A stretch of 64,000 nt of DNA from Candidatus Krumholzibacteriia bacterium (GTDB lineage Bacteria > Krumholzibacteriota > Krumholzibacteriia > Krumholzibacteriales > Krumholzibacteriaceae): the NCBI GenBank assembly GCA_963836185.1, contig CAWIIQ010000001.1, forward strand, positions 736,001 through 800,000, in the 5' to 3' direction. The position numbers and the translations under genes are program-made. Of the stretch, positions 3,239-63,432 are shown piece by piece. Positions within the stretch are counted from its first letter, which is position 1, and every line of letters starts with the position of its first letter. The notes under the pieces were generated by a model. That model saw only the letters and a program-made list of their open reading frames with translations. It searched no databases and had not been told where the DNA came from.

Positions 3239-3268
3239 CGGCGGACTGACCCGTCACGAAACAGCGCG

Positions 3269-4330: not shown

Positions 4331-4343
4331 GCCGGAGAAACCG

Positions 4344-6341: not shown

Positions 6342-6764
<423 letters not shown>

Positions 6765-6802
6765 CCGGGGCGAAGAATCGGGAAGCGTGGAGAGTTTGAG
6801 CA

Positions 6803-7108: not shown

Positions 7109-7142
7109 AGCGGCGCGCGGCGCGCTGCAGGGAGCGGTCAAA

Positions 7143-9565: not shown

Positions 9566-9580
9566 AGAATGGTGATCTGA

Positions 9581-10975
9581 ATGACAGAGAGAAATCTCAA
9601 GGAGGGCAGGGAGTATATCGGGATCTCAAGCGTCTCGGGCCCCCTGGTCGCGGTAAAGGGTATACATAACGTCGGCTATAACGAACTCGCGGAGGTCGTC
9701 GATTCGAGCGGGCACGTAAGACTCGGAATGATCCTCGAAAGCAGCGAGCATGCCGCCGTCATCCAGGTGTTCGAGGGGACCTCGGGGCTTTCCATCCCCG
9801 ATACGAGGGTCCGCTTCAAGGGCGAGCCGCTCCATTTCGCGGCCGGCGCCGAGATCCTCGGACGCGTATTCAACGGGCTCGGCCAGCCTATCGACGACGG
9901 CCCGGCGCCGCTCGCGGAGAAGCGGATGGACGTCAACGGCCTTCCGATCAATCCGACTGCCCGCGAATACCCCAAAAAATTCATACAGACCGGAATCTCG
10001 GCTATCGACGGGATGAACACGCTCGTGCGCGGCCAGAAACTGCCGGTATTTTCCGGCACGGGCCTTCCGCACAACAGGCTCGTAGCCCAGATCACCCGAC
10101 AGGCGAAGCTGATAGGTGAGGACACACAGTTCGCCGTAGTGTTCGCCGCGATGGGTATCAAGCACGACGTCGCGCGATATTTCATAAGGAACTTCGAGGA
10201 ATCAGGTGTGCTGGAGAAGGTAGTGCTGTTTCTTAATCTGGCGGACGATCCGTCGGTGGAGAGACTTGTTACTCCCAGAACCGCGTTGACAGCCGCGGAA
10301 TTTCTGGCATTCGACATGAACATGCACGTGCTCGTGATCCTGACCGACATGACGAACTACTGCGAGTCGCTCCGCGAGATATCGACGATCCGCGAGGAGA
10401 TCCCGAGCAGAAAGGGATATCCCGGCTACCTTTACAGCGACCTTTCGATCATCTATGAGCGCGCCGGGATGGTTAAGGGTATAGAAGGATCGATTACACA
10501 GATGCCGATCCTCACGATGCCCAACGACGATATATCGCATCCTGTGCCCGATCTTTCCGGATACATCACGGAAGGCCAGATAGTACTGGAGAGAGAACTC
10601 GACCAGAGGAACATCTACCCGCCTATCGCGGGGCTGCCTTCGCTCTCGCGCCTGATGAAGGACGGGATCGGCGCGGGAATGACGCGCGAGGACCACGCTC
10701 ACGTCGCGAGCCAGCTCTTCGCCGCCTATTCGCATGTGAAGGATGTACGCGCCCTCGCCGCTGTGATCGGCGAAGAGGAGCTTACGCCGCTCGACAAGGT
10801 CTATCTCGAATTCGGAGAGAGGTTCGAGCGCGAGTTCCTCAGCCAGGGCGAGTACGAGGACCGTTCGATCGAAGAGACACTCGACATAGGCTGGAAGGTG
10901 ATCTCCACGCTGCCGAAGGAAGAGCTCTACCGGATCAGCGAGGAAGAGATCGCCAAATATTACGGCAAGGATTGA
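9581..10975 (+). CDS. ntpB: V/A-type ATPase subunit B
   Basis: '[21 protein letters not shown]', '[12 protein letters not shown]', '[20 protein letters not shown]'. Confidence 0.97.
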
Positions 10976-10979
10976 CCAG

Positions 10980-11615
10980 ATGGCCCGCTACGAGATGGCT
11001 CCTACCAAGACGAACCTGATGAAGGTCAAGCGCGATCTCGGTTTCGCGCAGGAGGGATGGGAGCTTCTCGACCAGAAGCGCAAGATCCTCATCGTCGAGC
11101 TGATGGGGTTGATCGACAGGGCCGTCGAGGCGCAGGAAGAAGTCGAGGCGAAACTCGGCGAGGCGTTCGAGGCCCTCGATCAGTCGATCCTCAGGATGGG
11201 GCGCAGGGAGGTCAATATGATCGCCCTGGGAATGAACATCGAATCCGACATATCATTCTCCGAGAAGAGGGTGATGGGTGTCTCTCTGCCGCGCGTCAAG
11301 GTGCGGTTCGACGATCGCTCGCCCTATTTCGCCGCGGCGGAGAGCAGCATCTGGATCGACGAGGCGATCAAGAAGTTCCGCGAGGTCCTGCGGCTCCTCG
11401 GAACGCTCGCCGAGGCGAGGATATCGCTGATGCGGCTCTCGCGCGAGGTGGGCAAGACGATCAGGAGGGTCAACGCCCTCGAAAAGATATTCATACCTGA
11501 TTACGACGAGACGCTGAAGTATATCGAGATGGCGCTCGAGGAATCCGAGAGGGAGGCGTTCTTCGTCCTCAAACTGGTAAAGGACCGCCTATCCCGGAAA
11601 AAGGGAGTAGCCTGA
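10980..11615 (+). CDS. ntpD: V/A-type ATPase subunit D
   Basis: 'PTKTNLMK', 'G.ELLDQKR', 'KTIRRVNALEK.FIP'. Confidence 0.95.
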   Translation: MARYEMAPTKTNLMKVKRDLGFAQEGWELLDQKRKILIVELMGLIDRAVEAQEEVEAKLGEAFEALDQSILRMGRREVNMIALGMNIESDISFSEKRVMGVSLPRVKVRFDDRSPYFAAAESSIWIDEAIKKFREVLRLLGTLAEARISLMRLSREVGKTIRRVNALEKIFIPDYDETLKYIEMALEESEREAFFVLKLVKDRLSRKKGVA

Positions 11616-16607: not shown

Positions 16608-17167
16608 GTGATAAGCGGAAGAACAGCAGTATATACAGGAACGACCCATGACATGGCAGGCTCTCTCAGGCGCGTCGCCGGGATCGCCGCATTCGTTGGT
16701 CTTCACAGCCGTTGCCGCCCAGCTCGCGGTACGTCTTCCCTACACGCCTGTTCCCGTAACGATGCAGACGCTGTTCGTCCTGCTCGCCGGGATCGTCCTC
16801 GGACCGCGCGACGGTTTCTACGCAATGATCGCCTATATCGGGATCGGCATCGCCGGAGCGCCGGTATTCGCCGGCATGACATTCGGCCCGGCCGTACTGT
16901 TCGGCCCGACGGGCGGATACCTTCTCGCTTTCCCCGCAGCGGCGATGCTGACCGGCGCTGTCGCAAGGTCGCTCGGCGGCGGAAAACCCGCCGTACTTCT
17001 CGCTTCGCTGGCGGGATCGGCGACGATCCTCCTCGGAGGCACAGCTACCTCTGGCTGCTCAGCGGACAGTCGCTTTCAGCGGCGTGCTCGCGATGGCGGT
17101 CGTGCCGTTCATCCTCGCTGACCTGGTAAAGACGGCAGTCGCTGCGGTGATCCTCTCAGGAAAGTAG
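16608..17167 (+). CDS. bioY: BioY biotin transporter S-component (frameshifted)
   Basis: 'PYTPVPVTMQTLFVLLAG', 'GAPVFAG', 'FGPTGGYLLAF', 'VPFILADLVK'. Preceded by TTGAAT-17-TAGATT (16545-16573) and an AAGGAG RBS. Confidence 0.88.
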
Positions 17168-17172
17168 ATCCC

Positions 17173-18420
17173 TTGGAACTCGCGTTTCATCTCATGGCCA
17201 AACCGATAGGCCCGGTCTGTAACCTCCGCTGCGAGTACTGCTTCTATCTCGAAAAAGAGACCTTCTATCCAGACGGCGAGCAGTACCGCATGTCAGACGA
17301 GGTCCTCGAGGCATATATAAGACAGGTCGCCGAGGCCCACGCCGATATCCCCGAGCTCCTCTTTGCCTGGCAGGGAGGGGAGCCGACACTGCTCGGAATC
17401 GAGTTCTTCGAGAAGGCGCTCGAGCTCGAGAAGAAGTATGCGAAGGGTAAGCCCGTCCAGAATACACTCCAGACAAACGGTACGATGATCGACGATGACT
17501 GGTGCCGCTTCCTCAAGAAGAACAACTTTCTCGTGGGCCTGAGCCTCGACGGCCCCGAGGATCTCCACGACCGCTACAGGAGAGACGCCGGGGGAGAGGG
17601 GACGCACGCGAAGGTCATGCGGGCCCTGAATCTTATGAAAAAGCACGGCGTCGAGTTCAACGTCCTCGCCTGCGTGAACCGCGAGACGGCGAAGCGCCCT
17701 CTCGATGTCTATCACTGGTTCAAGGATAACGGTGTGGAGTTCATCCAGTTCATCCCGATAGTCGAGCTCGCGCCGAATGCGGAGACCTCGGAGCTCGGCC
17801 TGCAGCTCGGCGTGCCGTCAGGTCCCGCCGATACAGGGCAGCCGGTCACCGAATGGACCGTCGAACCCGAGGATTACGGGGACTTCCTCAACACGATCTT
17901 CGACGAGTGGGTGCGAAACGATGTCGGCTCGGTATTCGTGATGAACTATGAATGGGCACTTGTCTCGTACATAGGCCTCCAGATGCCCGCCTGTTTCTTC
18001 TCGCCGGAGTGCGGCAATGCGGGGATCATCGAGCACAACGGGGATATATATTCGTGCGACCATTTCATGTACCCGCGGTACCTCCTGGGAAATGTCCTTA
18101 AAGACGACCTCTCGAAGATGATGTCCTCACCTCTTCAGAAGGAGTTCGGCGCCGACAAGGGCAAACTTCCCCGGTACTGCCTCGAGTGCAGGGTCCTCAA
18201 GGCATGTTACGGCGAGTGCCCCAAGCACAGGTTCGCCGTGACGCCTGACGGCGAGCCCGGCCTGAATTATCTCTGCGCCGGATACAAGAAGTACTTCGAA
18301 CACGTCCTTCCCTATCTCAAGGCGATGACCGACCTGCTGAACGCCGGGAAACCGGTATCGGATATAATGGACCAGACGATAATCGTGCTGCCTCGAAGAG
18401 GCGATAGCCCGCATGGGTAA
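17173..18420 (+). CDS. Anaerobic sulfatase maturase (radical SAM/SPASM), copy 1
   Basis: 'AKPIGPVCNLRCEYCFY', 'WQGGEPTL', 'EHNGDIYSCDH', 'C..C.....C.GECPKHR', 'LNYLC.GYK'. Confidence 0.93.
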   Translation: MELAFHLMAKPIGPVCNLRCEYCFYLEKETFYPDGEQYRMSDEVLEAYIRQVAEAHADIPELLFAWQGGEPTLLGIEFFEKALELEKKYAKGKPVQNTLQTNGTMIDDDWCRFLKKNNFLVGLSLDGPEDLHDRYRRDAGGEGTHAKVMRALNLMKKHGVEFNVLACVNRETAKRPLDVYHWFKDNGVEFIQFIPIVELAPNAETSELGLQLGVPSGPADTGQPVTEWTVEPEDYGDFLNTIFDEWVRNDVGSVFVMNYEWALVSYIGLQMPACFFSPECGNAGIIEHNGDIYSCDHFMYPRYLLGNVLKDDLSKMMSSPLQKEFGADKGKLPRYCLECRVLKACYGECPKHRFAVTPDGEPGLNYLCAGYKKYFEHVLPYLKAMTDLLNAGKPVSDIMDQTIIVLPRRGDSPHG

Positions 18421-18425
18421 AACAG

Positions 18426-19688
18426 ATGGATCCAGTCAAAAAAAAGCGCCTTTTCAGGGGTAAGCCTGTAATCAGGATGCACGCGATGGCGAAGCCCCTC
18501 GGGCCGGTCTGCAATCTCGACTGCGATTACTGTTTCTATCTCAGTAAGGAAAAACTCCTCTCCACAGACACACAGTGGCGCATGAGCGACGAGGTCCTCG
18601 AGTCGTTTATCCGGCAATACATCGAGGGACAGAACTACAAGGAGGTCGTTTTCTCGTGGCAGGGGGGAGAACCTACCCTTCTCGGACTCGATTTCCTATA
18701 CAGGGTCGTCGAACTGCAGAAGAAATACGCTCCGTCATGGATGAGGATCGAGAACGACCTTCAGACCAACGGCACCCTTCTTGACGACGACTGGTGCGGA
18801 TTCCTGGCGGAGAATGACTTTCTTGTCGGGTTGAGCATAGACGGCCCGAAGGAACTCCATGATCACTACCGCACATACAAGGATGGGCGAGGCACCTTCG
18901 ATGATGTATTCCGCGCATCGAAACTCCTGAGAAAGCACAAAGCGAGGTTCGCGACACTGAGCTGCGTCAATCACGTTACAGGAAAGCATCCGCTCGAGGT
19001 CTACCGTTTCCTGCGTGACGAAGTAGGTCCTGAACGGATGCAGTTCATACCGATAGTCGAACCGAGGATCTTCCGCGAGACGGCGCCGCAGAGATGGCCC
19101 GATTTCCTCGTTCCGGACATGGACGATCCCCGGGCGAGGCCGGGAACACCCGAATCCGTCGTGGAGGACTGGTGCGTCGATCCTGACGACTATGGTGATT
19201 TTCTCATCGCGATATTCGATGAATGGCGCACCAATGATATCGGAAGGCATTTCGTCACATTCTTTGAATCGGCAGTGGCACAGTGGATGGGAAAGATATC
19301 CCCTCTCTGCATCTTCGGGCCGATCTGCGGGAAGGGCGTCGCGATCGAGCACGATGGAAGCGTCTACTCATGCGATCACTACGTATACCCGGAGTACAAA
19401 CTGGGCAGCATCCGCGATGAATCGATCGACCGGATGGTCCTCTCCGAAAAACAGGAAGCTTTTGGATACGCGAAGGATATGTCCCTGCCGGGGCAGTGCC
19501 GCCGGTGCGACTACCTCTTTGCGTGCGCCGGTGAGTGCCCGAAGAACAGGTTCATACGGACCCCGGAAGGTGAGCGGGGCCTGAACTATCTCTGCTCAGG
19601 CCTGAAAAAGTACTTCAGGCATATCGATCCGCACGTCCGAAAGATTATACGCGATATGGGCCGGGAACCTGTCGAGGGAGTTGTGTGA
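18426..19688 (+). CDS. Anaerobic sulfatase maturase (radical SAM/SPASM), copy 2
   Basis: 'AKPLGPVCNLDCDYCFY', 'WQGGEPTL', 'EHDGSVYSCDH', 'CAGECPKNR', 'LNYLCSG'. Confidence 0.93.
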   Translation: MDPVKKKRLFRGKPVIRMHAMAKPLGPVCNLDCDYCFYLSKEKLLSTDTQWRMSDEVLESFIRQYIEGQNYKEVVFSWQGGEPTLLGLDFLYRVVELQKKYAPSWMRIENDLQTNGTLLDDDWCGFLAENDFLVGLSIDGPKELHDHYRTYKDGRGTFDDVFRASKLLRKHKARFATLSCVNHVTGKHPLEVYRFLRDEVGPERMQFIPIVEPRIFRETAPQRWPDFLVPDMDDPRARPGTPESVVEDWCVDPDDYGDFLIAIFDEWRTNDIGRHFVTFFESAVAQWMGKISPLCIFGPICGKGVAIEHDGSVYSCDHYVYPEYKLGSIRDESIDRMVLSEKQEAFGYAKDMSLPGQCRRCDYLFACAGECPKNRFIRTPEGERGLNYLCSGLKKYFRHIDPHVRKIIRDMGREPVEGVV

Positions 19689-50817: not shown

Positions 50818-51774
50818 TCACACGCCTATTTCGAGAAGGACCTTGAAGGTATCCTTCCTTCGCGCGCGTCTCAGCGCTGTCTCCCATCTTTCAAACGGGT
50901 AGATGGCCGTCAAGAAAGGCGCCGTCTCGACCTTCTTCTTTTCCAGCAGGCTCAGCGCGGCCTCGAACGGCCCGCACCGGGAGCCGACGATCGTTATCTC
51001 GTCGACAGTGACCCGGGAGGGATTCCATTTCAGAGGGGTGTTGAATGTCGATTTGAGGACCACGGTCCCGTGGGGTCTGACGAGGTCAATGGCGTCGGGA
51101 AGCCCCATCCTGCTCCCCGTGCATTCGACGACGACATCGAACGACCCTTTCATCGAGGGGGCTTTAGCCGAGTGAGCGGTCTCGAAGCCGAGTCCGGCGA
51201 AGAGTCGCATCTTCTCCTGGTCGACCCCGATGACGGTCAGCGTTTTCGTCTTGAGCCCGAGGACCTGCGCTACCATCGCGGCGAGCCTTCCATCTCCGAG
51301 GATGGCCACGCGTGTCGACTGGCTGAAGTAAACGCGCTCGGGTATCTCGCACGCCGCGGCGAGGAGCTCTGTGAAGACCGCCTCCTCGTCACTGACACTC
51401 TCGGGGACGGCGTGGAGGTTTGCCATGGGAAGGGCGAGGTATTCGGCGAAGGCGCCGTCCCGGCCCTCTATCCCGAGGACGGTCCTTTCAGGGCAGTGCT
51501 TTCCCAGCCCGCGCCGGCACAGTTCGCACCTGCCGCAGCTCACGTTGATCTCTCCCGTCACCCTTCGCCCGGCGAGGCTGCGGGGCGTCTCGACCGTTCC
51601 GACGAATTCGTGGCCCGGGACGCCGCTGAAATCCATGTATCCCTTGAGGATCTCGAGGTCCGTCGAGCAGATTCCGGCGTATCTCACCCTGACAAGGGCC
51701 TCTCCGCGGCGGGGCTGAGGCCTGTCGATCTCCTTCTCGCGGAGCACTCCGTGTTTGAAGTAAAGAGCCTGCAT
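50818..51774 (-). CDS. Zinc-binding alcohol dehydrogenase (MDR family)
   Basis: 'GICSTD', 'GHEFVG', 'CGRCELC...HC', 'GDGRL'. Confidence 0.9.
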   Translation of the reverse strand: MQALYFKHGVLREKEIDRPQPRRGEALVRVRYAGICSTDLEILKGYMDFSGVPGHEFVGTVETPRSLAGRRVTGEINVSCGRCELCRRGLGKHCPERTVLGIEGRDGAFAEYLALPMANLHAVPESVSDEEAVFTELLAAACEIPERVYFSQSTRVAILGDGRLAAMVAQVLGLKTKTLTVIGVDQEKMRLFAGLGFETAHSAKAPSMKGSFDVVVECTGSRMGLPDAIDLVRPHGTVVLKSTFNTPLKWNPSRVTVDEITIVGSRCGPFEAALSLLEKKKVETAPFLTAIYPFERWETALRRARRKDTFKVLLEIGV

Positions 51775-51900
51775 GACATTTCAAGGATAGCGCATCCGGC
51801 GCGGAATTGGTAGAGGTAGAATGGAGAAGGGCCGGGAACTGATCCGGGCCCCCGGCGTTAGACAGATTATATGTAGATACATCTAAAACGGAGGTCCACG

Positions 51901-53296
51901 ATGAGATTTCTGAAGATATTGATCCCTGTAATTGTATTGATGACCCTGATATCTCCATACGCGGCCCGCGGCGCGCACATCTTTCTGCTGAAGGAGACCT
52001 TCGGCACAGTGGAGATCGATAAGGTCGAGATAGAAGATGGCGATGTCATGATATTTGACGGGGAGGATGTTATCACGGTCGTGATACCTCTCGGGATCGG
52101 TCAGTCTGGCGACCTGGTGAAGAGAGACATGAGGAGCGGGACGATCACGATCAGGTCGACCGGCGGCGAGCTTCATGTCAGCAAGAAGCAGGATGACGGG
52201 AGGAAGATAGATTTTCCAGTCGTGAAGATAGAAGATCTTCCCGCATACGATATCCGGGTCAATATTGCCGGAGGCGACGGTACGAAGAGAGCTTTCCGGA
52301 TAAGCAGGTACGAGGAGGCCGAGACAGACGACGGCCCTGTGATAGACATGTTCGCCGGGATGATCCCGCTCGAGGACGGCGACTATTCGATCACCCTCGA
52401 GATAGCAGCGGCCGAAACGGCGGCGTTTGTCTCGGGCGAGACGACGATCTTCTATGAGAAAGGGTTCCTCCTGACAGAGGGAAGACTGCCGGACGGCAGG
52501 AAGGGCTGGTTCATCGTCGATTTCGGAGCGAGCGGTACGCTGGTCTCGAAGGAGTTCCTTCCCGCCTATATCGACATAGAGGAGGTCAAGGCTCTGGAGT
52601 ACTCCGACAGGGGGCGCAGGGAGGTAAAAAGCGTGATGAGCGGGGCCGGAGGCGACGTGACCGGCTTTCTCGGAAACGCCAGTCCGGGAGATCTGAGATT
52701 CGGTGATGTGAGGTTTTCCGACGTGAGGGTGAATGTCATAGAATCGATGCCTGATTTCGGGACGAGAAAGATCGCCGGGATCCTCGGCCTCGACCTGATG
52801 AAGCTCTGCGACAGGATCGCCTTCGAGTACCCGCGTAGCGGGCCGGGTGTTCTGATGATGGGGGAGAGGCATTCGCTGACCGAGACGGATGCCCCGGCGG
52901 CCGTGGTGCCGTTTCATCTCGTCGCGAAGCATATATTCCTCGACGGCGAGGTGAACGAGGTGCCTGTCTCTTTTCTCTTCGACACGGGGGCGAGGTCCTC
53001 GATCATCTCCGACATGAAAGCTGAGGGATGCGGGATTGAATGAGATATCCGACGCCGGGAAAGGCGAGCTCCGGGGTCTCGACGATAATCCTGTAGAGAC
53101 AAGGGCCGTGATCGCGGACAGGCTGAGGCTCGGAGAATGGCTCCGCTCCGGCGTCCCTTTTCTCGCCGCCGATCTTTCAGTCTTCGAGAGCATCGGGCTC
53201 AGGCGGGGAGGCGGGATCATCGGCAACGATTTCCTCGATGACTACAGTCTTGTAGAGATAGATTTCAGCGAAAGTGTGATCTCTCTCTGGAGGTAG
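51901..53296 (+). CDS. Secreted protein with two retropepsin-like aspartyl protease domains (frameshift near 53040)
   Basis: 'FIVDFGAS...GILG.D' and 'FLFDTGA...GIIG.DFL..Y...IDF'. Confidence 0.75.
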
Positions 53297-53389
53297 GGCC
53301 CCGTTTGTCCTTGAACAGCGGTCCATTTCTGACTTAACCTGCTGAAATATCAAGGCGATTCCACACTGGATATAAGGAAGGCGGAAACG

Positions 53390-54079
53390 ATGAGCGAGAA
53401 CAGCGGCAAGGTCAGGAAATACATACTTGACGATTTCTCTATCCAGGAGAGCTGGAGGCTCTTCAGGATACTTTCCGAGTTTGTCGACGGATTCGACAAT
53501 ATGGTCGATGTTCCGGCAGGAGTGAGCATCTACGGTTCGGCGAGGGCGAAGGAGGGCGACAAGTCATACGAGGACGCGCGCAAGATCGCCACGGCTCTCT
53601 CGTCGAGGGGCTGCTCGATCATCACCGGCGGCGGCCCGGGAGTGATGGAGGCGGCCAACCGCGGGGCGCAGGAAGGCGGCGGGCTCTCGGTCGGATTGAA
53701 TATCGAACTGCCCTTTGAGCAGAAGCCCAATCCGTACATCGACAGGCTGATCTCGTTCCGCTACTTCTTCGTGCGCAAGGTGATGCTGGTAAAGTACTCG
53801 ATAGCGTTCGTCATCATGCCCGGCGGCTTCGGTACGATGGACGAGTTCTTCGAAGCGCTCACCCTGATCCAGACCCGCAAGATCGCGCCTTTTCCCGTAT
53901 TTCTCGTGGGAAAGGAATACTACGGAGGGCTGGCCGACTGGATCAACAACAAGATGCTCGCCGAGGACATGATCCTGCCCGAGGACCTGAAGATCGTAAG
54001 ACTCGTCGATTCGGTCGAGGAAGTTATCGAAGGGGTCTCCGAGCTGCTCGATGGAGTGGATTTCGGACAGGCCAAGTAA
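53390..54079 (+). CDS. LOG family (TIGR00730) Rossmann-fold nucleotide phosphoribohydrolase
   Basis: 'GSAR', 'TGGGPGVMEAANRGA', 'FRYFFVRK', 'PGGFGTMDE'. Confidence 0.92.
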   Translation: MSENSGKVRKYILDDFSIQESWRLFRILSEFVDGFDNMVDVPAGVSIYGSARAKEGDKSYEDARKIATALSSRGCSIITGGGPGVMEAANRGAQEGGGLSVGLNIELPFEQKPNPYIDRLISFRYFFVRKVMLVKYSIAFVIMPGGFGTMDEFFEALTLIQTRKIAPFPVFLVGKEYYGGLADWINNKMLAEDMILPEDLKIVRLVDSVEEVIEGVSELLDGVDFGQAK

Positions 54080-54099
54080 ACTGCAGATGGTTCCCGGCG

Positions 54100-55008
54100 C
54101 TATCCCGGAATAATGTAGGCCAGTGTCAGCAGGATGCCTGTGGCGAGGTGCGTGATGATCGTCAGGGCGTTCGCGGGCGTCATCGCGCCAGGGTCGTCGT
54201 GAGCGCGCGTGGCGACATGTATCGCCCTGAGCGCCAGCGGGAGTGTAGCCAGTCCGATCAGTGTCCAGCGAGGCATCAGGCCGGCCGCGGCGCCTGCTGC
54301 TATCGGTATGTAAGCCGACAGCATCACGACCGCGATACAGGACCCGGCCCTTTCCGGTGCCGAGCCGTACGACGAGGGTCTTCTTTCCCGTAGCTTTATC
54401 GGCGGCCGCGTCCTGGAACTCGTTTATGATGATGATCGCTGTGGTCATTATCGCGAGCGGGAGAGGGGCCACAAGTATCTGATGCGAAACTGTCCCTGTC
54501 TGTACGTAGTACGCTCCGACCGCGATAAGGCCGAAGGCGAGGAATATCGCTATCTCACCGAGTCCCCGGCCGGCGAGCATGGCGCGCGGCTCGGTATACA
54601 TGATCCCGAAGACAAGGCCGGTGATCCCGAAGAGTATTATTGCCGGGCCCCTTACGGTGTAGAGGTATATCCCGATCAGCGACGCGAGCGTGAAGAGGAC
54701 TGATCGAGAGTATGAGCACGCCCCGGGGAGTGACGAATCCCGCCTGGATCATCCTGCTGCCGCCTGTGAACGGGCTGGCGAAGTCGACGTTGGCTTCGTC
54801 GTTTCCCGACCTGTGATCGAACCAGTCGTTTATCGTGTTCGAGCCGAGGTGCAGGAGGATGGCTCCGGCTAGTGTCAGCGAGAAGAGAAGGGGATCCCAC
54901 AGCCCTGTCTCGTAACGCGCTATCGCGGCAGGCGAGCACGACGGGGAGGATACTGACGGTGAGGAACGGGGCCCTCAACTCGACAAGGTATGCCTGCAGC
55001 TTGTTCAC
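54100..55008 (-). CDS. menA: MenA-like UbiA family prenyltransferase (frameshifted)
   Basis: 'LRAPFL..S', 'NDWFD..SGND..N......FTGGSRMIQ', 'NEFQD...D...GKKTLVVRLG'. Confidence 0.8.
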
Positions 55009-55084
55009 GGGATCGATCCTTTCATCTGATCTCGACCTTCAGGTGTCGAATATAGTCTGATTGCGCGGACCGCGTAAAGATTAC

Positions 55085-55115
55085 AAAAAACCCGGAGCGC
55101 TTTTCGCGCTCCGGG
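55085..55115 (-). terminator. Second intrinsic terminator of the peptide transcript
   Basis: Minus strand: ACCCGGAGCGC-GAAAA-GCGCTCCGGGT-TTTTT. Confidence 0.88.
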
Positions 55116-55136
55116 TAACCGCGGGTCTATCGTTCC

Positions 55137-55170
55137 AAAAAAAAGGCGGGGCGCTTTCGCGTCCCGCCTT
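55137..55170 (-). terminator. First intrinsic terminator of the peptide transcript
   Basis: Minus strand: AAGGCGGGACGC-GAAA-GCGCCCCGCCTT-TTTTTT. Confidence 0.88.
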
Positions 55171-55184
55171 CAGAGTCTCTGGGT

Positions 55185-55265
55185 CTACCAGACGCTCTTG
55201 CCCCAGACGCTCTTGCCGGCGATCATGAGGGCTATGATCATCGCTATGCTTGTGAAGTGGAACAT
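55185..55265 (-). CDS. Uncalled 26-aa peptide MFHFTSIAMIIALMIAGKSVWGKSVW
   Basis: ATG at 55265 with SD AAAGGGG 6 nt upstream; TAG at 55187-55185. Dedicated promoter upstream and two terminators downstream. Too short for the supplied ORF track. Confidence 0.78.
   Translation of the reverse strand: MFHFTSIAMIIALMIAGKSVWGKSVW
55188..55217. repeat. Perfect 15-bp tandem repeat (x2) encoding GKSVW
   Basis: CCAGACGCTCTTGCC at 55188-55202 and 55203-55217. Confidence 0.95.
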
Positions 55266-55337
55266 TTTCAACCCCTTTCGTTGAGACTCTCAAAAGTTAC
55301 TTCGTATTTATCATCGTTCCTCATGCTTACCTGTAAT

Positions 55338-55353
55338 AGCCAGAGGCGTGCCA
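55338..55353 (-). promoter_or_regulatory. sigma54 (-24/-12) promoter
   Basis: Minus strand TGGCACGCCTCTGGCT versus consensus TGGCACG-N4-TTGCW (one mismatch); GG-N10-GC spacing is exact. Confidence 0.75.
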
Positions 55354-55390
55354 TAATTCCCAGTTGTTTCTCATATTGCATTAAGGCTTG

Positions 55391-55403
55391 TAAGTGATTG
55401 ATA
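55391..55403. promoter_or_regulatory. IHF binding site
   Basis: TAAGTGATTGATA, whose reverse complement TATCAATCACTTA exactly matches WATCAANNNNTTR. It lies between the sigma54 promoter and the upstream palindromes. Confidence 0.7.
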
Positions 55404-55470
55404 AATAAAGAAATAAAATGTCGCACTATTTCGCGAAATGAGCGATTATGGCCCGGCCGGTTTCGAGAAA

Positions 55471-55574
55471 TGTAAACATATATTTACACGCATTTCAGGA
55501 ATCCACATAACTTCAATATAAATATAGCGATAATGTGTAAACTGCAATTTACCTGTATGTAAACAAGAGTTTAC
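55471..55574. promoter_or_regulatory. Three palindromic enhancer-like sites (GTAAA-N6-TTTAC)
   Basis: 55472-55487 GTAAACATATATTTAC, 55537-55552 GTAAACTGCAATTTAC, 55559-55574 GTAAACAAGAGTTTAC; each is preceded by T. Confidence 0.75.
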
Positions 55575-55595
55575 GAAAATGGGCATTTCCGGGGA

Positions 55596-57183
55596 TTATT
55601 TCTTCCGGGTGAACTTTTTGAGGATGCCGATGCCGAAAAGGGCGATCCTGACATGCGCGGCATGCTCTCTCGGGGCCAGGGCCCTTTCGGCTGTTTCGAG
55701 GTCGCTCACCCTTATCAGCCCTGTGACAGCGGCGAGGCCCTTGTAGACAGCCGAGCCCGCCACGAGCACGATGACGATACGGACCCAGGGCGACATCGAG
55801 ACTGTCGCCATAGCGAGGAGGGGATAGGCAGCTGCGAGTATAAGGGGGTGGATCAGCGAGAGCGGTGAGATCCGGGACCTGGATGTCGACCACATCATCA
55901 TCAGCAGTACGGCGGCGAGGAAGATGAAGGTGGCGAGGGTAGCGATCGCCGCGCCGGCGATCCCCATGCGGGGGATGAGGACCATATTGAGGACGATGTT
56001 CAGGACAGCCGCGCCGAGATAGGCGCTCGCCGCGAGGCGGCCCTTGCCGAAAGCTACGAGAGAGGCCCAGGATACCCGGCAGAAGATATCGGCCAGACCG
56101 ACCAGGACGAGTATCCTCGTGATCTCCGCGGAGGGGAGGAACTTCGGCAGGACGATTGAGAAGGCGTCAGGGGCCAGGGACCAGATCAGCATGACTACCG
56201 GTACGAGGATTATCAGTGTGATCCGTCCGGTGCTGCGTATCTGCCTGCGGAAGGCCTCCATGTCTCCAGAGGCCCGGGTCGCCGACAGAGAAGGGATAAG
56301 GGCCGTTCCCGCAGTCGATGAGATGACACTCAGAGCCGTGATCACGATCGCCGCCATCGCGTAGAATCCGAGCTGGTCGGCGGGCAGGTAGAACTTCACC
56401 ATTATCCGGTCCACCGTATTGATCAGGTTCCATCCGAGGCTGGCGAAGAAGAAGAAAAACCCGAAACCGAATACCTCCCTGAATCCCTGGACCAGCGGGC
56501 CCGAACCGGATGTCCAGTGCCGGATCGCTTTGCGGTGAAAATAGACCGTGAAGAGGAGCGCGCCGATCACTTCCGCTGTAAGGAATCCGGCGATGACCGA
56601 TACGACGTCGCGTCGCCAGAGGATCGCCGCTATAGGAAGGACAATATTGAGCAGTCCATGCACGACAGTGATGCCGGCGCGCAGCTTGCCGCGCTGGACG
56701 GCGAGATAGGTGACGGCGTAGAAGGCGTTGAGCGCGAGGAAGGGGATGATCAGGGCGTAGATCCTTATCGGGGCGGCAGCTTCCGGCTGATGGGCGATAT
56801 TCTCGGCGATCCAGGGGGCGAACACGATCAGCAGGATGCACCAGAGGGTCGAGAGGCCGAGGGTAAGCACGACGGCCGCGTTGTAGATCATCGCTGCCTT
56901 GTCCTTGCGCCCCTGCTGCAGGTATTCCGGGACCAGCCTGGCGAATGCCATGTTGAACCCGATGTTCGAGAAGATCACGAGGAGCTGGACGTATGATATG
57001 GGGATGTTAAGGAGCCCGTAGAGGGAAGGTCCGAGGATCCGGCTCGAGTATAACGCTGCGGATCGGCTTGAGCAGCGTCACCCCGATCTTCGACGCTGAT
57101 ACGAAGAATGTGTCGGATATCACCTTGGAGGTGGACAGGTCCACGGGAGAGCGGGTCTGATCTTCCGGATCGTTTTGATTCAT
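55596..57183 (-). CDS. MOP-superfamily polysaccharide flippase (Wzx-like; frameshifts near the N-terminus)
   Basis: Many TM segments; 'GP..YG', 'DRIMV..YL...QLGFY', 'NIVLN.VLIP.MG..GAA.AT'. Confidence 0.82.
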
Positions 57184-57194
57184 GCTCTGCGAAC

Positions 57195-58581
57195 CTATTT
57201 CTTGTACTGGCTGATGAACTCCTCGACCTCGGGGATGCCTCCCTGGTAGATCAGGTAGCCGTTGTGCGGCTCCCGCTCCGTGATCTCGCCCGCGATCGGG
57301 GTCAGCATGATCTTCTTGACCTCTTCGCGGTCCTCGCTCTGGCCGAGCGCCCATCCGAGCTTAACATACGCCACCTCGGGCAGCATGTTATAAGACGGTA
57401 TGACGCCGAGGTCCATCATGTCGCGCCCCGTGTCGTACACGTACATCTGTACGTAACCCCAGAGCGTCTGCACGGTCATGTATACTGAGATCCCCTCATC
57501 GTACGCCCTCTTGAGAGCGGGGTAGAGAGGCTTGTTGACGTGCCCGAGGCCTGTGCCTGCGATGACGATCCCCCTGTACCCGTTGTCTATCAGAGAATCG
57601 ATGATGTCGGGCTTCATGTTGGGGTAGTAGTAGACGATCGAGACGCGATCGTCGAAGGCCGTGTTGATCTTGACGTTCGTGTCTTTCCTGCGCTTCTTGA
57701 TGTCGCTGCGAAGCGGCGTGAACTTCTCGCGGTCGACCATTGCCAGCGGGATGTCGCCGATCGTCCTGAAGGTCGACCTGTACGACGAATGCATCTTGCG
57801 CACACGCGTTCCCCTGTGAAGCAGGGCGTACTGGTCGCTCGTGGGGCCGAACATGCAGACCATCACTTCGGCGTAGTCGCTGTAGGCTGCGGTGCGCGTC
57901 GCGTGTATCAGATTCAGCGCGGCGTCGCTCGACGGGCGGTCGCTCGAGCGCTGTGAGCCGACCATCACGATCGGAACGGGTGAGTCCTGGACCATGAAGG
58001 AGAGGATCGCCGCCGTGTGATGCATCGTATCTGTGCCGTGCCCGATGACTACGCCCGCTACGCCCTTTTCTATCTCCTCGCCGATCTTCTCCGGCCGTGC
58101 CTTTCCACTGCTCGGGGCCCATGTTCTCGCTGAAGACGCCGTACATCTTCTCGGTCTCGAGGTTGCAGACGTCGGCGAGCTCGGGAACGGAGCCGTAGAG
58201 CTCACCCGGGGTGAAGGCGGGGATGACCGCGCCGGTGCGGTAGTCGAGCCTCGAGGCGATCGTGCCGCCCGTGCCGAGGAGTTTTACCATCGGCTTTTTC
58301 GGATCGTAGGGGAATTCCTTCTCGGGGATCTTGTAGTGCGCCTCGCGCTTGCCGTGCGTGACCATCGATTCGATCGTGCCGACGGCCAGGCCGACGTTAT
58401 AGCCGGTGTCGAGCTTGAGCACGACGTGGTTGTTATCGGCGGTCTCGGACCTGGGGAGGATGATCCCCCTGAAATCACCGCGTGTCGAGTGGACCTCGAC
58501 GTCGAACCAGACGCCGGCTTCGAACTTCTTGAGGCACTCCAGCGCGTCGCCCATGTATCCCTTGTAGATATCGTCGCCCAC
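57195..58581 (-). CDS. gatD: Glu-tRNA(Gln) amidotransferase subunit D (frameshift near 58095)
   Basis: GatD N-terminal domain 'VVLKLDTGYNVG', then asparaginase-like 'TGGTIASRLDYRTGAV', 'HGTDTM', 'GSQRSSDRPSSDA', 'VRKMHSS.R'. Confidence 0.92.
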
Positions 58582-58605
58582 GTTAACCTTCCTTAGCGCC
58601 GCCTG

Positions 58606-60516
58606 TTAAGACGCTACGAAACGGCCCGCGAAGTCGAATGCCTCGCGGCCCGTGATATATCCCCTGAATTGTATCGCCAGCTGGCCGGTCAGGTATCTTA
58701 CCAGCTTGTCTTTCTCTATGTCGGGGAGCTCGACCGAACCGGCGAACTCCTTCATCTTCTTTTCGAGAGTCTTTTTATCGAGGACGTTGAAAGATTCCGC
58801 GGCCTCATCCGGCTCGATCCCTTCACCGCATGTCTTTCCCAGAAGGACTTCGAGGCTCAGCGCCGGCAACTTCTTTTTGCCGGCCGCGGTGATGGTCCCG
58901 ACGAACGCCTCGTCGCTGCATTCCGGCACGCCGTCGCGGCGGCGCAGCCTGCGCATCCCTCTGAGCAGCAGCTCAGCCACGGTCAGCGGCGCGAACTCAG
59001 TCTCCGCTACGGCCGCGTCGAACGCGTACCTGCGTTTCGAGATGCTCATCCTTCGCGCCGTTTCCCTGTCGAGCCCCATCTCTTCATATCTTTTCTGCCT
59101 GTCCCACGGAAGCTCGGCGAGGTTCGACCTGATCCTCTCGATGCGATCCTCGGTGATGGCGATCGGAGGGAGGTCCGTATCGGGATACATCCTGTTCGGA
59201 CCGGGCAGTATCCTCTCGAAACCGTTCGTCCCGTCGGCCAGGGCCTGCCTGGTCTCGTCGGGAATGCCGACAGTCGCCTCTTTCGCTCTTAACGCGATCT
59301 CACTGATAGCCATCTTCGCGTCTTCCTTGCTGCCCCATACGACGACTACCACATCGTCACCGGTCGTCTTCGAGTGTTTCTTGATCTTCGTCCACTCAGC
59401 GCTCGAGAATGTCTCGCCTTCGCTGTCGGAGTGAGCGATATTGGGCAGGATGTCGAGGCAGGCGACGACGCGCACCCTGTCGGATATCTCCTTCGAGAAT
59501 GTCGTCTCGGGTTGAGTCTTCGTCGGCAGGATGCCGCTGAAACCGCGCAGCACGACAGCGTGGACCTGAAGGCCCGACTTCAGCGCCTTCGAAACGGGAT
59601 AATATTGAGTTCCCTTGAGGACGTTGGTGACCTCTACCGAGTCGAACTTGAATGTCCCCTCCGTGATACCCTTCTTGTTGAGCCGGTCCCTTATCTCGAG
59701 CAGCGCGAGCTGCCTGAACGCCTCGTTATGTACGAGAAGCGGGATCATCGGGATGCGGGGCACGCCCTTAATCTCTATCCTGCGCCCGCCGGCGACCGAG
59801 ACGTTTACGTCCTGCCTCGTACGGCCGAGGCCGGTGCGGACCTTGCCTGTCGAGCGGGTAAGGTGCCTGATGACCTGCGCCACATCGGCAACTTCCTGCG
59901 GGGTGCGCATCTCGGGGTAAGTGACGGTCTCGATAAGGGGGATGCCGAGACGGTCGGTCCTGTAGACGCGGTCATGGCCGATATCGGTGATCTCGCGGCA
60001 GGCGTCCTCCTCGAGCCCGAGCTGGATGATACCGATCCGGCGGTCGCCGTACGGTATCGAGCCGTCGACGCCGAGGATCGTAGTCCGTTGAAAGCCTGTC
60101 GGGATCGATCCGTCGAGGTATTGTTTTCTCGCTATGTGGACCTCGCTGACGAGCTTGCAGCCGAGCAGCATAGTGATTTCGAGCGCGATGTCGAGCGCCT
60201 GCAGATTGAGCTCGAAGGGCGGCGTGTCATCCATCTCGTAGGTACAGACCGTTTCCTTGTTTATCTGGTATATGATGTTTTTCTTTGTCTTGAACTCCAT
60301 CAGGGCGGTTCCATCGTACTCGCCCAGTTCGGAGAGTGTGGGCCTCATGTGGCGGAGGATCTGCGCGTCGAACTCTTCGCTGTAGGGACGAATCGGGCAG
60401 CGGCAGAAGAGCTTCTTCTCAGTGTCAAGTTGCTGGTGTATCTCGAGGCCGCTCTTCATACCTATCGCCTGGTAGTCCTCGAGCGTCATCTCGCCAAGTT
60501 GTCGGAATTCGATCAC
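58606..60516 (-). CDS. gatE: Glu-tRNA(Gln) amidotransferase subunit E
   Basis: 'DYQAIGMKSGLEIHQQLDT.KKLFC.CP', 'DGSIPTGFQRT', 'LEEDACR', 'DRLGIPLIE', 'RQDVNVS', AspRS-like insert, 'P.ETR....DG...F.R.LPG..RMYPDTD.PP'. GTG at 60516 after a GGGAG RBS. Confidence 0.93.
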   Translation of the reverse strand: MIEFRQLGEMTLEDYQAIGMKSGLEIHQQLDTEKKLFCRCPIRPYSEEFDAQILRHMRPTLSELGEYDGTALMEFKTKKNIIYQINKETVCTYEMDDTPPFELNLQALDIALEITMLLGCKLVSEVHIARKQYLDGSIPTGFQRTTILGVDGSIPYGDRRIGIIQLGLEEDACREITDIGHDRVYRTDRLGIPLIETVTYPEMRTPQEVADVAQVIRHLTRSTGKVRTGLGRTRQDVNVSVAGGRRIEIKGVPRIPMIPLLVHNEAFRQLALLEIRDRLNKKGITEGTFKFDSVEVTNVLKGTQYYPVSKALKSGLQVHAVVLRGFSGILPTKTQPETTFSKEISDRVRVVACLDILPNIAHSDSEGETFSSAEWTKIKKHSKTTGDDVVVVVWGSKEDAKMAISEIALRAKEATVGIPDETRQALADGTNGFERILPGPNRMYPDTDLPPIAITEDRIERIRSNLAELPWDRQKRYEEMGLDRETARRMSISKRRYAFDAAVAETEFAPLTVAELLLRGMRRLRRRDGVPECSDEAFVGTITAAGKKKLPALSLEVLLGKTCGEGIEPDEAAESFNVLDKKTLEKKMKEFAGSVELPDIEKDKLVRYLTGQLAIQFRGYITGREAFDFAGRFVAS

Positions 60517-60536
60517 CCGTTGCTCCCTTCCCTTTA

Positions 60537-61946
60537 TCAGCAGTCGAGGTAGAGCTGGACCTCGAGCGGATGGGTGCGGTTTCGCACCGGCCATACGTCC
60601 TTGTCAAATTTCAATGCGATCCAGTCCTCGATCATCGTCGCGTCGAAGACGTCGCCCTGCAGGAGGAACTCGTGATCCCTCTCCAGTTCACGCAGCGCCT
60701 CGGCGAGCGAGCCGGGCAGAGCCTTGATCTTTCCGCGCTCCTCCGGAGTCATCTCGAAGACGTTTACCTCAAGCGGTCCGAACCCGAGTTCCTTCGGGTC
60801 GAGCTTGTTGCGGATACCGTCGATCCCGGCCATCAGCTGGGCGGCCATCGAGAGGTAGATGTTTCCAGTCGCGTCGGGGGGCCTGAACTCGAGCCTCTTC
60901 TTCTCCGGCGTAGAGGCATATTTCGGGATCCTGATAGCGGCCGACCTGTTGCCGAGCGAGAAGAAGGCGTTGACCGGCGCCTCGAAACCGGGCACGAGAC
61001 GTTTGTACGAGTTCGTGCTCGGGTTGGTCAGTGCGAGCAGTGCGGGGGAGTGGTGGAGCAGCCCGGCGATATACTGGAGCGCCGTTTTGCTCAGCCCCGC
61101 GTAACCCGCCTTGCTGTAGAAGAGGGGCTTGCCCTTCTTGAAGAGGTGCTGGTGGAAGTGCATCCCGTTGCCCGCTTCGTTATGTATCGGCTTGGGCATG
61201 AATGTCGCGATCATCCCCGCCTCGTCGGCGGCCATGCGCACGAAATATTTTACGATCATCGAGATGTCGCCCATCTTCGTCAGCGGCGCGAACTCGACCT
61301 CGATCTCGCCCTGGCCGTGGCCGCCTACCTCGTGATGGTGATACTTGATGCCGATGCCCGCTTCCTCGAGCAGGACGACGGTGCGGTCACGCACGCCGGC
61401 GAGCTTGTCCTCGGGGGGCAGGGCGTGGTATCCGGCGTGTGTCTTCAGCCCGAAGCTTCCCTTGTTCTCGCCTTCACGCGGGATGATCTCGTAGCCGAAA
61501 CTGAGGTTCGATGTGTCTACGAGGACCTCGTCGAATATGTAGTACTCGAACTCCGGCCCCCACATCGAGACGTCTGCGATCGCAGTCTTCTTCAGAAAGG
61601 CCTCGGCCTTGCGCGCGATGTGTCTCGGGTCGCGGGGGAATGGTTTTTTCGAGTCTGCCTCTACGATGTCGCATATGAAGCATGCCGTAGGGACCTTGCT
61701 GAACGGATCGACGAACCCGGTCGAGAGGTCGGGGACGAGGGAGAGGTCGCCCAGCTCGACCGTCTTGAGGCCGGCGAAGTTCGAGCCGTCGAACCCGAGG
61801 CCTTCCGAGAAAAGCTTGCTGCCGGCGTTCGACGCCGGGACGGTCAGGCGGTGCCAGCGACCGAGATAATCGGTGAACTTGAGGTCGATCAGCTTGATGC
61901 CTTGCCGCTTTATCTCAGACTTGAGTTTCGTGATAGAGGTAAAGAT
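60537..61946 (-). CDS. glnA: Glutamine synthetase type I
   Basis: One open frame of 469 codons: 'IDLKFTD..GRW', 'FDGS', 'GPEFEYY', 'HHHEV', 'TFMPKP', 'GNGMH.H', 'NSYKRLVPGFEAP', 'NRSAAIRIP', 'EFRPPD'. The first codon is ATC. Confidence 0.93.
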   Translation of the reverse strand: MFTSITKLKSEIKRQGIKLIDLKFTDYLGRWHRLTVPASNAGSKLFSEGLGFDGSNFAGLKTVELGDLSLVPDLSTGFVDPFSKVPTACFICDIVEADSKKPFPRDPRHIARKAEAFLKKTAIADVSMWGPEFEYYIFDEVLVDTSNLSFGYEIIPREGENKGSFGLKTHAGYHALPPEDKLAGVRDRTVVLLEEAGIGIKYHHHEVGGHGQGEIEVEFAPLTKMGDISMIVKYFVRMAADEAGMIATFMPKPIHNEAGNGMHFHQHLFKKGKPLFYSKAGYAGLSKTALQYIAGLLHHSPALLALTNPSTNSYKRLVPGFEAPVNAFFSLGNRSAAIRIPKYASTPEKKRLEFRPPDATGNIYLSMAAQLMAGIDGIRNKLDPKELGFGPLEVNVFEMTPEERGKIKALPGSLAEALRELERDHEFLLQGDVFDATMIEDWIALKFDKDVWPVRNRTHPLEVQLYLDC

Positions 61947-62100
61947 GTCACAACCCCCCTGTTTTCAATACGTTCTGAAGATGGCCACACGCCCCGGACG
62001 GGGCGCTGGCGCGGATTTCCAATATATTTGATGATATACCCTCTATCAAGGATTAAATGCCCGTTATTACGAGGGTTGAGGCATCATTCCCGGAGTCTTG

Positions 62101-63432
62101 TCATCGCGGGACATGCATGCGGCGGACTGCGTGGTTGTTCGTGTCCGCTATATAGATGTAGCCATCTGCGACATGCAGGCCGTTCGGATGGTCGAGCTGT
62201 GCGGATGCGGCGCCGCCGCCGTCGCCCGTGTAGCCCGCTCCGTTCCCGCCGGCGAGGAGTTCAAGTGTCCCGCCAGCAAGGGGGACGCGCCTGACAGCAT
62301 GGTTCATACTGTCGGCGATGTAGATGTATCCTTCGTAAACAGCTATCCCGTTCGGCTGCCACAGGCCGCCCGCGACAGTCTCGATGTTGCCTCCAACGGT
62401 GAACGAGCGGATCAGTCCGCGGACCGTCGATACGTAGAAGGTCCCGTTGAATTCCCGTATGCAGGACGGGTGCGTAAGAGATGCCGCTGTAGCAGGGCCT
62501 CCGTCACCGAGGTCGCCATAGTAGGTGCCGTCACCGGCGACAGTACCGATGTCGCCGCCGACACTGAACATCCGGATCCTGTCATTGCCGGTATCCGCAA
62601 CGTAGACATCGTTTCCATCTGCCCAGACTCCGTACGGGTCGAGCATTTTCGCGAGGAGAGCCTCTCCGCCATCCCCGGTGTAGCCTGGCATGTATACCGT
62701 GCCGCCTACCCGCTCGAATGTACCGCCTTCCTGGAAGCGGCAGACGCAGTGGACGTTGCCAGCGACGTAGATCCAGTCGCCCGTTATCCAGATATCGTTC
62801 GGCCGGCCTATATATGAATGGTCCTCGATGGTGGTGATATTCCCTCCGACAGCGAACTTGCGTATCGCCGTGTTCATATGATCGGCTACATAGACGCTGG
62901 CTCCCACGCACACTACTGACCACGGTTCGTTGAGCTGGGCACCGGTGGCCGGCCCGTCGTCACCGCTGTCCCCGCTGTCGTTGCCGCCGGCGATCGTCTC
63001 GATCTTGTTGGTAACATTGTTCGCGACCGGTGTCGCTGTAAATGAGGCGAGTGGATTGGACGGGTCCGCCGTATCCTGCACGTCGCCGGTGGCCATGTCG
63101 TACTGGAGGGTCAGTGTGTGGGGATACAGGACCGGGTGCGGCAGGGTCAGGGTCAGTGATGTTGTGCCTGATCCATCGAGACTGCTGATCGTGACGCCTG
63201 TGCTGTTTAAAGTAACGGCAAAACCGGCGGCGCTTGAAGCGGTCACCGCTTCATCGAATGTCAGCACTATATCCTGGGGGGCGGCATCCTCTACTGTCAT
63301 GCTTACGACCTGCGGCTCTTCGGTGTCAGGCGGATCTCCACCTGTCGGTGTCGTTGAATCGTCACCGCATCCGGCCCATATTACGGAAGTGAGACTGAGA
63401 AGAACGATGAGCAACCGGTTTCGTAAAAGCAT
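62101..63432 (-). CDS. NHL-repeat lipoprotein with an N-terminal Ig-like domain
   Basis: Lipobox 'WAGC'; repeats 'G..GDGGPAT.A.L..P.G....YVAD..N..IR'. Confidence 0.85.
   Translation of the reverse strand: MLLRNRLLIVLLSLTSVIWAGCGDDSTTPTGGDPPDTEEPQVVSMTVEDAAPQDIVLTFDEAVTASSAAGFAVTLNSTGVTISSLDGSGTTSLTLTLPHPVLYPHTLTLQYDMATGDVQDTADPSNPLASFTATPVANNVTNKIETIAGGNDSGDSGDDGPATGAQLNEPWSVVCVGASVYVADHMNTAIRKFAVGGNITTIEDHSYIGRPNDIWITGDWIYVAGNVHCVCRFQEGGTFERVGGTVYMPGYTGDGGEALLAKMLDPYGVWADGNDVYVADTGNDRIRMFSVGGDIGTVAGDGTYYGDLGDGGPATAASLTHPSCIREFNGTFYVSTVRGLIRSFTVGGNIETVAGGLWQPNGIAVYEGYIYIADSMNHAVRRVPLAGGTLELLAGGNGAGYTGDGGGAASAQLDHPNGLHVADGYIYIADTNNHAVRRMHVPR

Follow-up and report, generated by a model that had tools for sequence, protein, structure and literature searches.

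Bacteria classically make glutaminyl-tRNA(Gln) either through the amidotransferase GatCAB or with glutaminyl-tRNA synthetase (GlnRS). A further amidotransferase, GatDE, is described as confined to archaea in passages of two reviews (PMC2811023; PMC9499178, including section 18), and reviews up to 2022 model the evolution of the genetic code on the premise that GatDE co-evolved with a tRNA-Gln beginning with the base pair A1-U72, the pair that archaeal GatDE reads according to section 5 of PMC2330236. The archaeal enzymes of Pyrococcus abyssi (1ZQ1) and Methanothermobacter thermautotrophicus (2D6F) are the best sequence and fold match to a bacterial gatE-gatD pair that directly follows glnA in a 64,000-nucleotide stretch of the genome of a Candidatus Krumholzibacteriia bacterium (herein the window; positions 736001-800000 of the 2.3 Mb contig C1, in a genome of 3.5 Mb that is 92.5% complete). 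Bacterial GatDE is real, old and under selection, which contradicts the archaea-only reviews; it has the subunits, domain order, insertion, GatD N-terminal domain, magnesium ligands, Thr and Thr-Lys-Asp motifs and, in more variable form, the tail of archaeal GatDE, but sits in a bacterial host that has GlnRS, GatCAB, asparaginyl-tRNA synthetase (AsnRS) and tRNA-Gln with U1-A72. The role that we tentatively propose for it, synthesis of Asn-tRNA(Asn), is the one described for GatCAB in Bdellovibrio, Deinococcus and Thermus, where an amidotransferase likewise stands beside AsnRS and GlnRS (part of PMC4206432). The glutaminase subunits of the two enzymes differ, GatA of GatCAB being an amidase and GatD having an asparaginase fold.

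The three genes lie on one strand, and a recount of the gaps between them gave the 20 bp (glnA-gatE, 60536-60517) and 24 bp (gatE-gatD, 58605-58582) of an earlier sequence-only reading of this DNA:

62021..62049, minus strand: predicted sigma-70-like promoter, 10 of 12 consensus positions matched, 17-nt spacer
61944..61959, minus strand: Shine-Dalgarno site and putative ATC start of glnA
61946-60537, minus strand: glnA, type I glutamine synthetase, 469 residues; TIGR00653 match for the portion from 61565, open frame from 61946
60516-58606, minus strand: gatE, 636 residues; catalytic cradle, insertion resembling aspartyl-tRNA synthetase (AspRS) at about residues 291-415, helical part and YqeY-like tail
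58581-57195, minus strand: gatD, 461 residues in relatives, interrupted in this assembly by a single additional base near 58091-58095
57183-55596, minus strand: MATE/flippase-like gene, with weak NCBIfam matches under cut-off, frameshifted in this assembly

GatE exceeds the cut-offs of NF003107 (524 bits, with 456 required) and TIGR00134 (455 bits, with 320 required), reaches 69-140 bits, all under cut-off, on GatB models, and aligns through the insertion domain with the GatE chains of P. abyssi (E 1e-105) and M. thermautotrophicus (E 1e-99); the full-length gatE with its AspRS-like insertion thus stands as first read, the insertion having diverged to the point that the Pfam GAD model is not matched. 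An intact gatD ortholog from a same-genus genome (L043) passes NF003217 and TIGR02153 and matches GatD_N (PF18195), which bears out the N-terminal domain and asparaginase fold claimed for GatD, and neither GatB nor type I asparaginase (AnsA) proved a better match to the pair. In the alignment, His27, Glu169 and Glu196 of GatE correspond to His15, Glu157 and Glu184 of the M. thermautotrophicus protein, named as magnesium ligands in a section of PMC2330236; these motifs occur in 39-40 of 41 GatE copies, and the catalytic Thr and Thr-Lys-Asp motifs of GatD occur in 39-40 of 40 relatives and in both window pieces.

All gatE domains are under purifying selection: within the genus, the ratio of nonsynonymous to synonymous substitution rates (dN/dS) ranges over 0.04-0.15 in the cradle, 0.09-0.16 in the insertion, 0.14-0.34 in the helical part and 0.13-0.26 in the tail (six pairs), compared with 0.06-0.07 for gatD (three pairs) and 0.07-0.11 for glnA. 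The YqeY-like tail is poorly conserved and has no PF02637 match, with a mean identity lower in the bacterial clade than among archaea (0.18 vs 0.27) where that of the cradle is higher (0.60 vs 0.50); it is nonetheless full length (190-220 residues past the last cradle motif) in 69 of 69 complete copies among 72 extracted, the three short ones reaching no stop within their locus, and its G-x-x-M-x-x-x-R-G motif is still recognisable. Loss of the tail, considered as an alternative, was hence not seen in any complete copy. A predicted model of one clade member (P0127) folds all domains, with a mean predicted local distance difference test (pLDDT) score of 87 and best matches to 1ZQ1 and 2D6F. Because the catalytic residues are kept, dN/dS is low, the tail is full length and the model resembles the archaeal enzymes, bacterial GatDE is likely to take the form of a tRNA-binding amidotransferase. 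Codon adaptation places gatD in the 97-100th, glnA in the 95th and gatE in the 82nd percentile among 886 open reading frames (ORFs), a native, high-expression-like codon style in keeping with the claim that it matches that of the neighbours.

The integrity of the locus bears on two dissenting accounts. The sequence-only reading treated gatD as a single frame and overlooked that it occupies two, with one base more than in any of the six relatives inspected; gatD is unbroken in 39 of 40 relatives' loci, the remaining locus ending at a contig edge, and the relatives' contigs are without the extra base. Since the assembly shows comparable breaks in aspS, a second class II synthetase gene, gatC, the gene for the V-ATPase A subunit, the flippase gene and others, the extra base is probably an assembly error. 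That it is genuine, in an operon decaying in this strain because a redundant enzyme has become inactive, would agree with the split frame and with the lack, among the read sets examined, of same-strain reads across the break, but we think it very improbable given those other breaks, the intact gatD genes of relatives and the dN/dS of the window's gatE and glnA, as low as in relatives. Among the runs listed for the stretch there is no RNA run and none that contains half of it; the contigs built from them come from relatives, and their near-identical pieces miss the break in gatD. The claim that GatDE belongs to archaea alone would likewise favour a mis-assembly or mis-binning that placed archaeal DNA in a bacterial contig, an account with next to no chance of being right: the contig extends over 2.3 Mb, a same-genus genome aligns unbroken over window positions 51339-62082 (10.8 kb, 79% DNA identity), which makes the cluster edges sound, and the protein groups with bacterial copies that are widespread in the phylum. 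Synteny and distribution together exclude a chimera, so the continuity at the flanks that had been marked for checking is confirmed, as is the bacterial neighbourhood (ExbB, outer-membrane barrels and trigger factor were found within the window).

Bacterial GatDE is not the rarity that the earlier reading implied. A survey of 155 Krumholzibacteriota genomes of at least 85% completeness found gatE in 122 (114 above cut-off), and a scan of GTDB genomes gave at least 595 confirmed gatE stretches, the best 80 of which carry the titles Ignavibacteria, Bacteroidota, Planctomycetota, Aminicenantes, Myxococcota, KSB1, Zixibacteria, Calditrichota, Marinimicrobia, Fermentibacteria, Cloacimonetes and others, with two Thermoplasmatota. 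In 71 of these 80 loci gatD was found, 64-83% identical to the own-genus protein (a range that leaves out two own-family loci and one split piece). NCBI annotation already names many such bacterial proteins GatE; no report of a bacterial GatDE was found in the literature searched, whose coverage was incomplete, and the main text of a survey of 366 bacterial genomes (PMC3927822) mentions neither gatE nor gatD.

Forty loci chosen among the gatE matches in the phylum, 20 from the window's own order and 20 from others, all have gatE and gatD adjacent, and glnA precedes the pair in 20 of 20 own-order loci versus 0 of 20 from other orders; within the phylum the glnA link is therefore order-specific, and the window represents an ordinary clade member with this link added. 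Separate glnA-gatDE arrangements occur at one planctomycete-labelled locus, one partial phycisphaeran locus and in one archaeon. The asparagine synthetase gene asnA adjoins gatDE in three lineages, on the same strand at two loci, one from Zixibacteria and one from Phycisphaerae (L188:3334-7860, L155:4287-9074), and convergently in a Krumholzibacteriota family herein called f7 (L076, L077). Besides glnA and asnA, no convincing neighbour of gatDE is conserved across phyla. Two departures from the usual layout were seen: in 4 of 20 own-order relatives (L048, L051, L057, L058) a family-5 solute-binding gene of about 500 residues lies on the opposite strand between gatE and gatD, and in a single genome (G060, L070:7604-10954) gatE and gatD form one frame of 1117 residues, with the internal Shine-Dalgarno site and ATG kept, which represents either a fusion or a lost base.

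The old inter-domain transfer suggested for the pair is upheld by the GatE trees. With FastTree (134 rows) the bacterial copies form one clade (support 1.0), next to a Heimdallarchaeota-type protein; with IQ-TREE (47 rows of cradle and insertion, without GatB and a single long-branch row, rooted at the midpoint) the 21 bacterial-clade rows, eight of them without a taxon name, group together (96/91) as sister to six Thermoplasmatota-type rows (100/100; joint support 100/99), and Heimdallarchaeota branch next. The sampled bacterial GatDE was thus likely gained once from a Thermoplasmatota-related archaeon, as far as these alignments can tell; a simpler model nests the Thermoplasmatota rows within the bacterial clade with weak support and so leaves room for a transfer back into archaea. 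The pair also moved between bacterial phyla, since the five Krumholzibacteriota rows are scattered in the tree and the window GatE is nearest an Aegiribacteria protein.

The sister group (bins G165 and G166 and more than 100 protein clusters, 72-93% identity) has cradle signature residues in common with Heimdallarchaeota and with the bacterial clade, and differs from the latter in its archaeal hosts, its A1-U72 tRNA-Gln, its retention of G217 and R228 and a YqeY domain that matches Pfam in nearly all members. In both Thermoplasmatota bins the clade gene is the sole GatB/GatE gene, on archaeal-looking contigs. In G165, the archaeon mentioned above, glnA lies after gatE in the same orientation, with gatD divergent (L220:1264-6197). 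The same bin, titled Thermoplasmatales archaeon, also encodes, at L219:8454-10646 on an archaeal-looking contig, a GlnRS that exceeds the curated cut-off and whose gene is flanked by two A1-U72 tRNA-Gln genes and a tRNA-Glu gene. This runs counter to the statement in a 2022 review that archaea are without GlnRS (PMC9499178).

The window genome did not import the archaeal pathway as a whole. It has gatA, gatB and gatC (the last in two pieces), GlnRS (729 bits, cut-off 426), AsnRS and two bacterial glutamyl-tRNA synthetases (GluRS), with no archaeal-type GluRS among its three PF00749 matches, and its two tRNA-Gln genes and its tRNA-Asn gene start with U1-A72. Across four bacterial gatE carriers, U1 was found in all five distinct tRNA-Gln genes; a pattern search for tRNA-Gln returned only chance matches and other tRNAs. 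The check for gatCAB and glnS that the sequence-only reading had proposed thus found both, that for an archaeal A1-U72 tRNA-Gln came out the other way, and GatDE as the cell's route to Gln-tRNA(Gln) gained no support: GlnRS and GatCAB likely cover that need. Of the two GluRS genes (C1:920407-922160 and C1:62472), one lies directly before tRNA-Gln(CUG) and tRNA-Glu(CUC). For asparagine, asnA was not found in the genome, which has three AsnB-like genes, one of them outside a polysaccharide cluster. The genome also carries a selenocysteine tRNA (tRNA-Sec).

One indication of which amide GatDE makes comes from what is lost alongside it. Within the phylum, gatE tracks the presence of glnS (in 107 of 122 genomes with gatE vs 12 of 33 without). 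Of the 36 genomes without glnS, 32 have gatB (the other four are 87-89% complete) and 21 have no gatE; where gatE is present and glnS absent, gatB is kept in 13 of 15 (the two misses being 87-89% complete, in 330-660 contigs). When both glnS and gatE are present, gatB is missing from 50 of 107. Fifty of the 80 named genomes from the GTDB scan were searched as a cross-phylum test. Among the 48 bacterial ones, 8 have no glnS and 6 of these carry gatB, two of them being single-contig chromosomes, as against 13 of the 40 that have glnS. Because GatCAB is kept where GlnRS is missing, GatDE is probably not the glutaminyl-tRNA route; the pattern says that it does not substitute for GatCAB in making Gln-tRNA, but can take over whatever GatCAB still does in a cell that has GlnRS. 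According to part of PMC4206432, this remaining task is, in other bacteria, the synthesis of asparagine. Outside family f7, asnA occurs in 8 of 32 genomes without gatE versus 3 of 112 with it, and the only genome of 95% completeness without either amidotransferase (G082) has asnA. A strict exchange of asnA for gatE was considered and fails in family f7. Two further substitutions were rejected, that of a missing glutamine synthetase (GS-family genes are present in 154 of 155 genomes) and, for the phylum, that of a missing AsnRS (asnS is present in 148 of 155 phylum genomes and over cut-off in 47 of 50 elsewhere); two bins (G180, G187; completeness not given) gave no asnS or gatB matches. In five planctomycete bins (G189, G190, G199, G204, G206) asnS matches in two pieces within one frame about 55-85 residues longer than usual, which suggests a lineage-specific insertion.

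The residues that may read the tRNA have also changed. Comparison of 49 bacterial-clade rows with 82 mostly unnamed, presumed archaeal rows shows that the Gln equivalent to Q240 of M. thermautotrophicus, present in 98% of the latter, is absent from every bacterial-clade copy with the motif (41 of 41 and 70 of 70). Conservation of G217, R228 and I233 is relaxed, another sequence stands in place of HxDELPxY in the insertion, and new invariant cradle positions, including Q132, Y133 and P139, match the GatB of the same genome. Section 17 of PMC2811023 places the first base pair among the corresponding loops of GatB and describes a 3-10 turn that reads U1-A72, in place of which GatE here keeps a loop of GatE length; we infer that the mapping carries over to GatE. 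On what the GatB Tyr and GatE Gln positions do, the literature searched gave nothing usable.

We propose, with a confidence just short of even, that bacterial GatDE amidates Asp-tRNA(Asn) to Asn-tRNA(Asn), possibly with dual Asp/Glu specificity; the proposal draws on the asymmetry of gene loss, the pattern and adjacency of asnA, the changed first-base-pair residues and the U1-A72 tRNA-Asn. In this route AspRS would mischarge tRNA(Asn), GatE would bind the U1-A72 tRNA through a loosened first-base-pair site and phosphorylate the aspartyl side chain using ATP, and GatD would free ammonia from glutamine, likely supplied by the neighbouring glnA, and pass it through a tunnel, so as to provide asparagine for translation when free asparagine is short. 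The fuller scenario, of one archaea-to-bacteria transfer spread over many mostly uncultured phyla, a switch from Gln- to Asn-tRNA, an ability to replace both GatCAB and AsnA and, in this order, a glnA with an AUC/AUU start feeding the route, we hold as plausible but somewhat doubtful when taken whole.

Several observations weigh against the asparagine proposal. The window's AspRS has Phe at a site where non-discriminating enzymes have His (seen in 3 of 9 AspRS read), a marker known to be unreliable; the specificity of neither AspRS nor GluRS could be read from sequence. In the GatCAB systems that make asparagine a non-discriminating AspRS is demonstrated, and here it is only proposed. The genome already has AsnRS, GatCAB and the three AsnB-like genes. 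Ten of the 11 genomes of family f7 hold both asnA and gatE, over all 155 genomes the anti-correlation of the two is weak (p 0.08, with kin not independent), and asnA occurs in 5 of the 50 cross-phylum genomes with gatE. In the window's own order 32 of 33 genomes, among them the window's, have gatB whether glnS is present or absent, so the 13 cases of gatB kept without glnS are for the most part not independent. Two bacterial bins with gatE (G171, G195) have no glnS or gatB matches, and in the archaeal bin G166 a member of this clade is the only amidotransferase, with no GlnRS match (completeness not given for any of the three). The GatB-like pocket residues Q132, Y133 and P139 are common to Heimdallarchaeota and Thermoplasmatota GatE and must therefore predate the transfer. 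Finally, archaeal GatDE is Glu-specific and refuses Asp-tRNA(Asn) (PMC2330236, section 5), bacterial GatE keeps the insertion domain that, in a passage of PMC2943598, blocks binding of the non-discriminating AspRS in archaea, and U1-A72 in tRNA-Asn is weakly diagnostic, being also found in 77 of 89 genera without GatCAB (PMC4206432, Table 2).

Two other functions compete with synthesis of Asn-tRNA(Asn). The pair may have kept its ancestral job, amidating Glu-tRNA(Gln) from a non-discriminating GluRS as a backup or clean-up system beside GlnRS and GatCAB, with glnA or asnA giving the amide donor; we regard this as a serious possibility, if one well below even. It is the sole activity shown for the family in the sections of PMC2811023 and PMC2330236 that treat it, and GatD uses Asn about as well as Gln (a further passage of PMC2330236), so that either glnA or asnA would make a suitable neighbour. 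The genome's two gltX genes, one of them next to tRNA-Gln and tRNA-Glu, would suit such a role, as would the sole GatB/GatE gene of both sister archaeal bins, bins G171 and G195 without glnS and gatB matches, and the retention of at least one amidotransferase in 149 of the 155 phylum genomes; a backup for GlnRS is hard to square, however, with the retention of GatCAB where glnS is missing, with a gatE that follows the presence of glnS, and with the U1 of tRNA-Gln in place of the A1-U72 read by archaeal GatDE. An unlikely further account takes the pair out of translation altogether, with a free amino acid or a different carrier as substrate, for instance as an asparagine synthetase that depends on glutamine or as an enzyme of amino-acid metabolism that degrades amides. 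The variable tail on a well-conserved cradle, the high identity of GatD across phyla together with strongly adapted codons, and neighbours that are amide synthetases or, in some relatives, a solute-binding gene between gatE and gatD could all be understood in this way, but not readily the invariably full-length tail with its recognisable motif and low dN/dS, or a model whose domains all fold as in the tRNA-dependent archaeal enzymes.

A large, selected bacterial clade in hosts with U1-A72 tRNAs contradicts the barrier that the co-evolution models assume. In the changed Q240 equivalent, G217, R228 and HxDELPxY positions, the new invariant cradle motifs and the more variable tail, it provides natural variants for asking how amidotransferases pick their tRNA and why indirect routes persist beside GlnRS and AsnRS. 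If the switch to Asp-tRNA(Asn) is true, a way of making asparagine is missing from the metabolic models of many uncultured phyla.

The glnA at the head of the cluster has a distinctive start. No ATG, GTG or TTG lies near its 5' end, and an ATC at 61946, six bases past a G-rich Shine-Dalgarno site, is the apparent start codon; ATC or ATT stands behind such a site in the window, as it does in all 19 relatives that show the 5' end, and gene callers restricted to ATG, GTG and TTG drop about 127 residues. ATC/ATT-type starts would be weak and sensitive to initiation factor 3 (IF3), as in infC of E. coli. The infC gene of this genome, found by motif, has the same strong Shine-Dalgarno site followed by ATC/ATT, the non-canonical start known for that gene; here, unlike in infC, the start heads glnA and not an initiation factor. 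The genome holds a second glutamine synthetase gene (glnA at C1:249829), which starts with ATG. A genome-wide scan for ATY starts gave 61 non-canonical candidates, mostly shadow or frameshifted frames and too noisy to count. As for the sigma-70 promoters of the sequence-only reading, a site with 10 of 12 matches does lie upstream of glnA, but the five such sites found in the region, against 3.5 expected, make the evidence weak.

Downstream, the flippase-like gene begins 11 bp past gatD and is possibly on its transcript; it occurs in 14 of 20 own-order loci and in 0 of 5 of the loci outside the family, and its frame is unbroken in both relatives inspected. Upstream of glnA, an NHL-repeat, lipoprotein-like gene (window 62101-63432, minus strand) is unmatched among the 40 loci of relatives that were searched, shows a lower GC content at third codon positions, and is likely a recent insertion. 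Elsewhere in the window are a V/A-type ATP synthase operon (3239-11612, plus strand), whose A subunit gene lies in two frames, and two tandem radical S-adenosylmethionine (SAM)/SPASM genes (17122-19685, plus strand) that follow several short unannotated ORFs and may form a peptide-modifying cluster.

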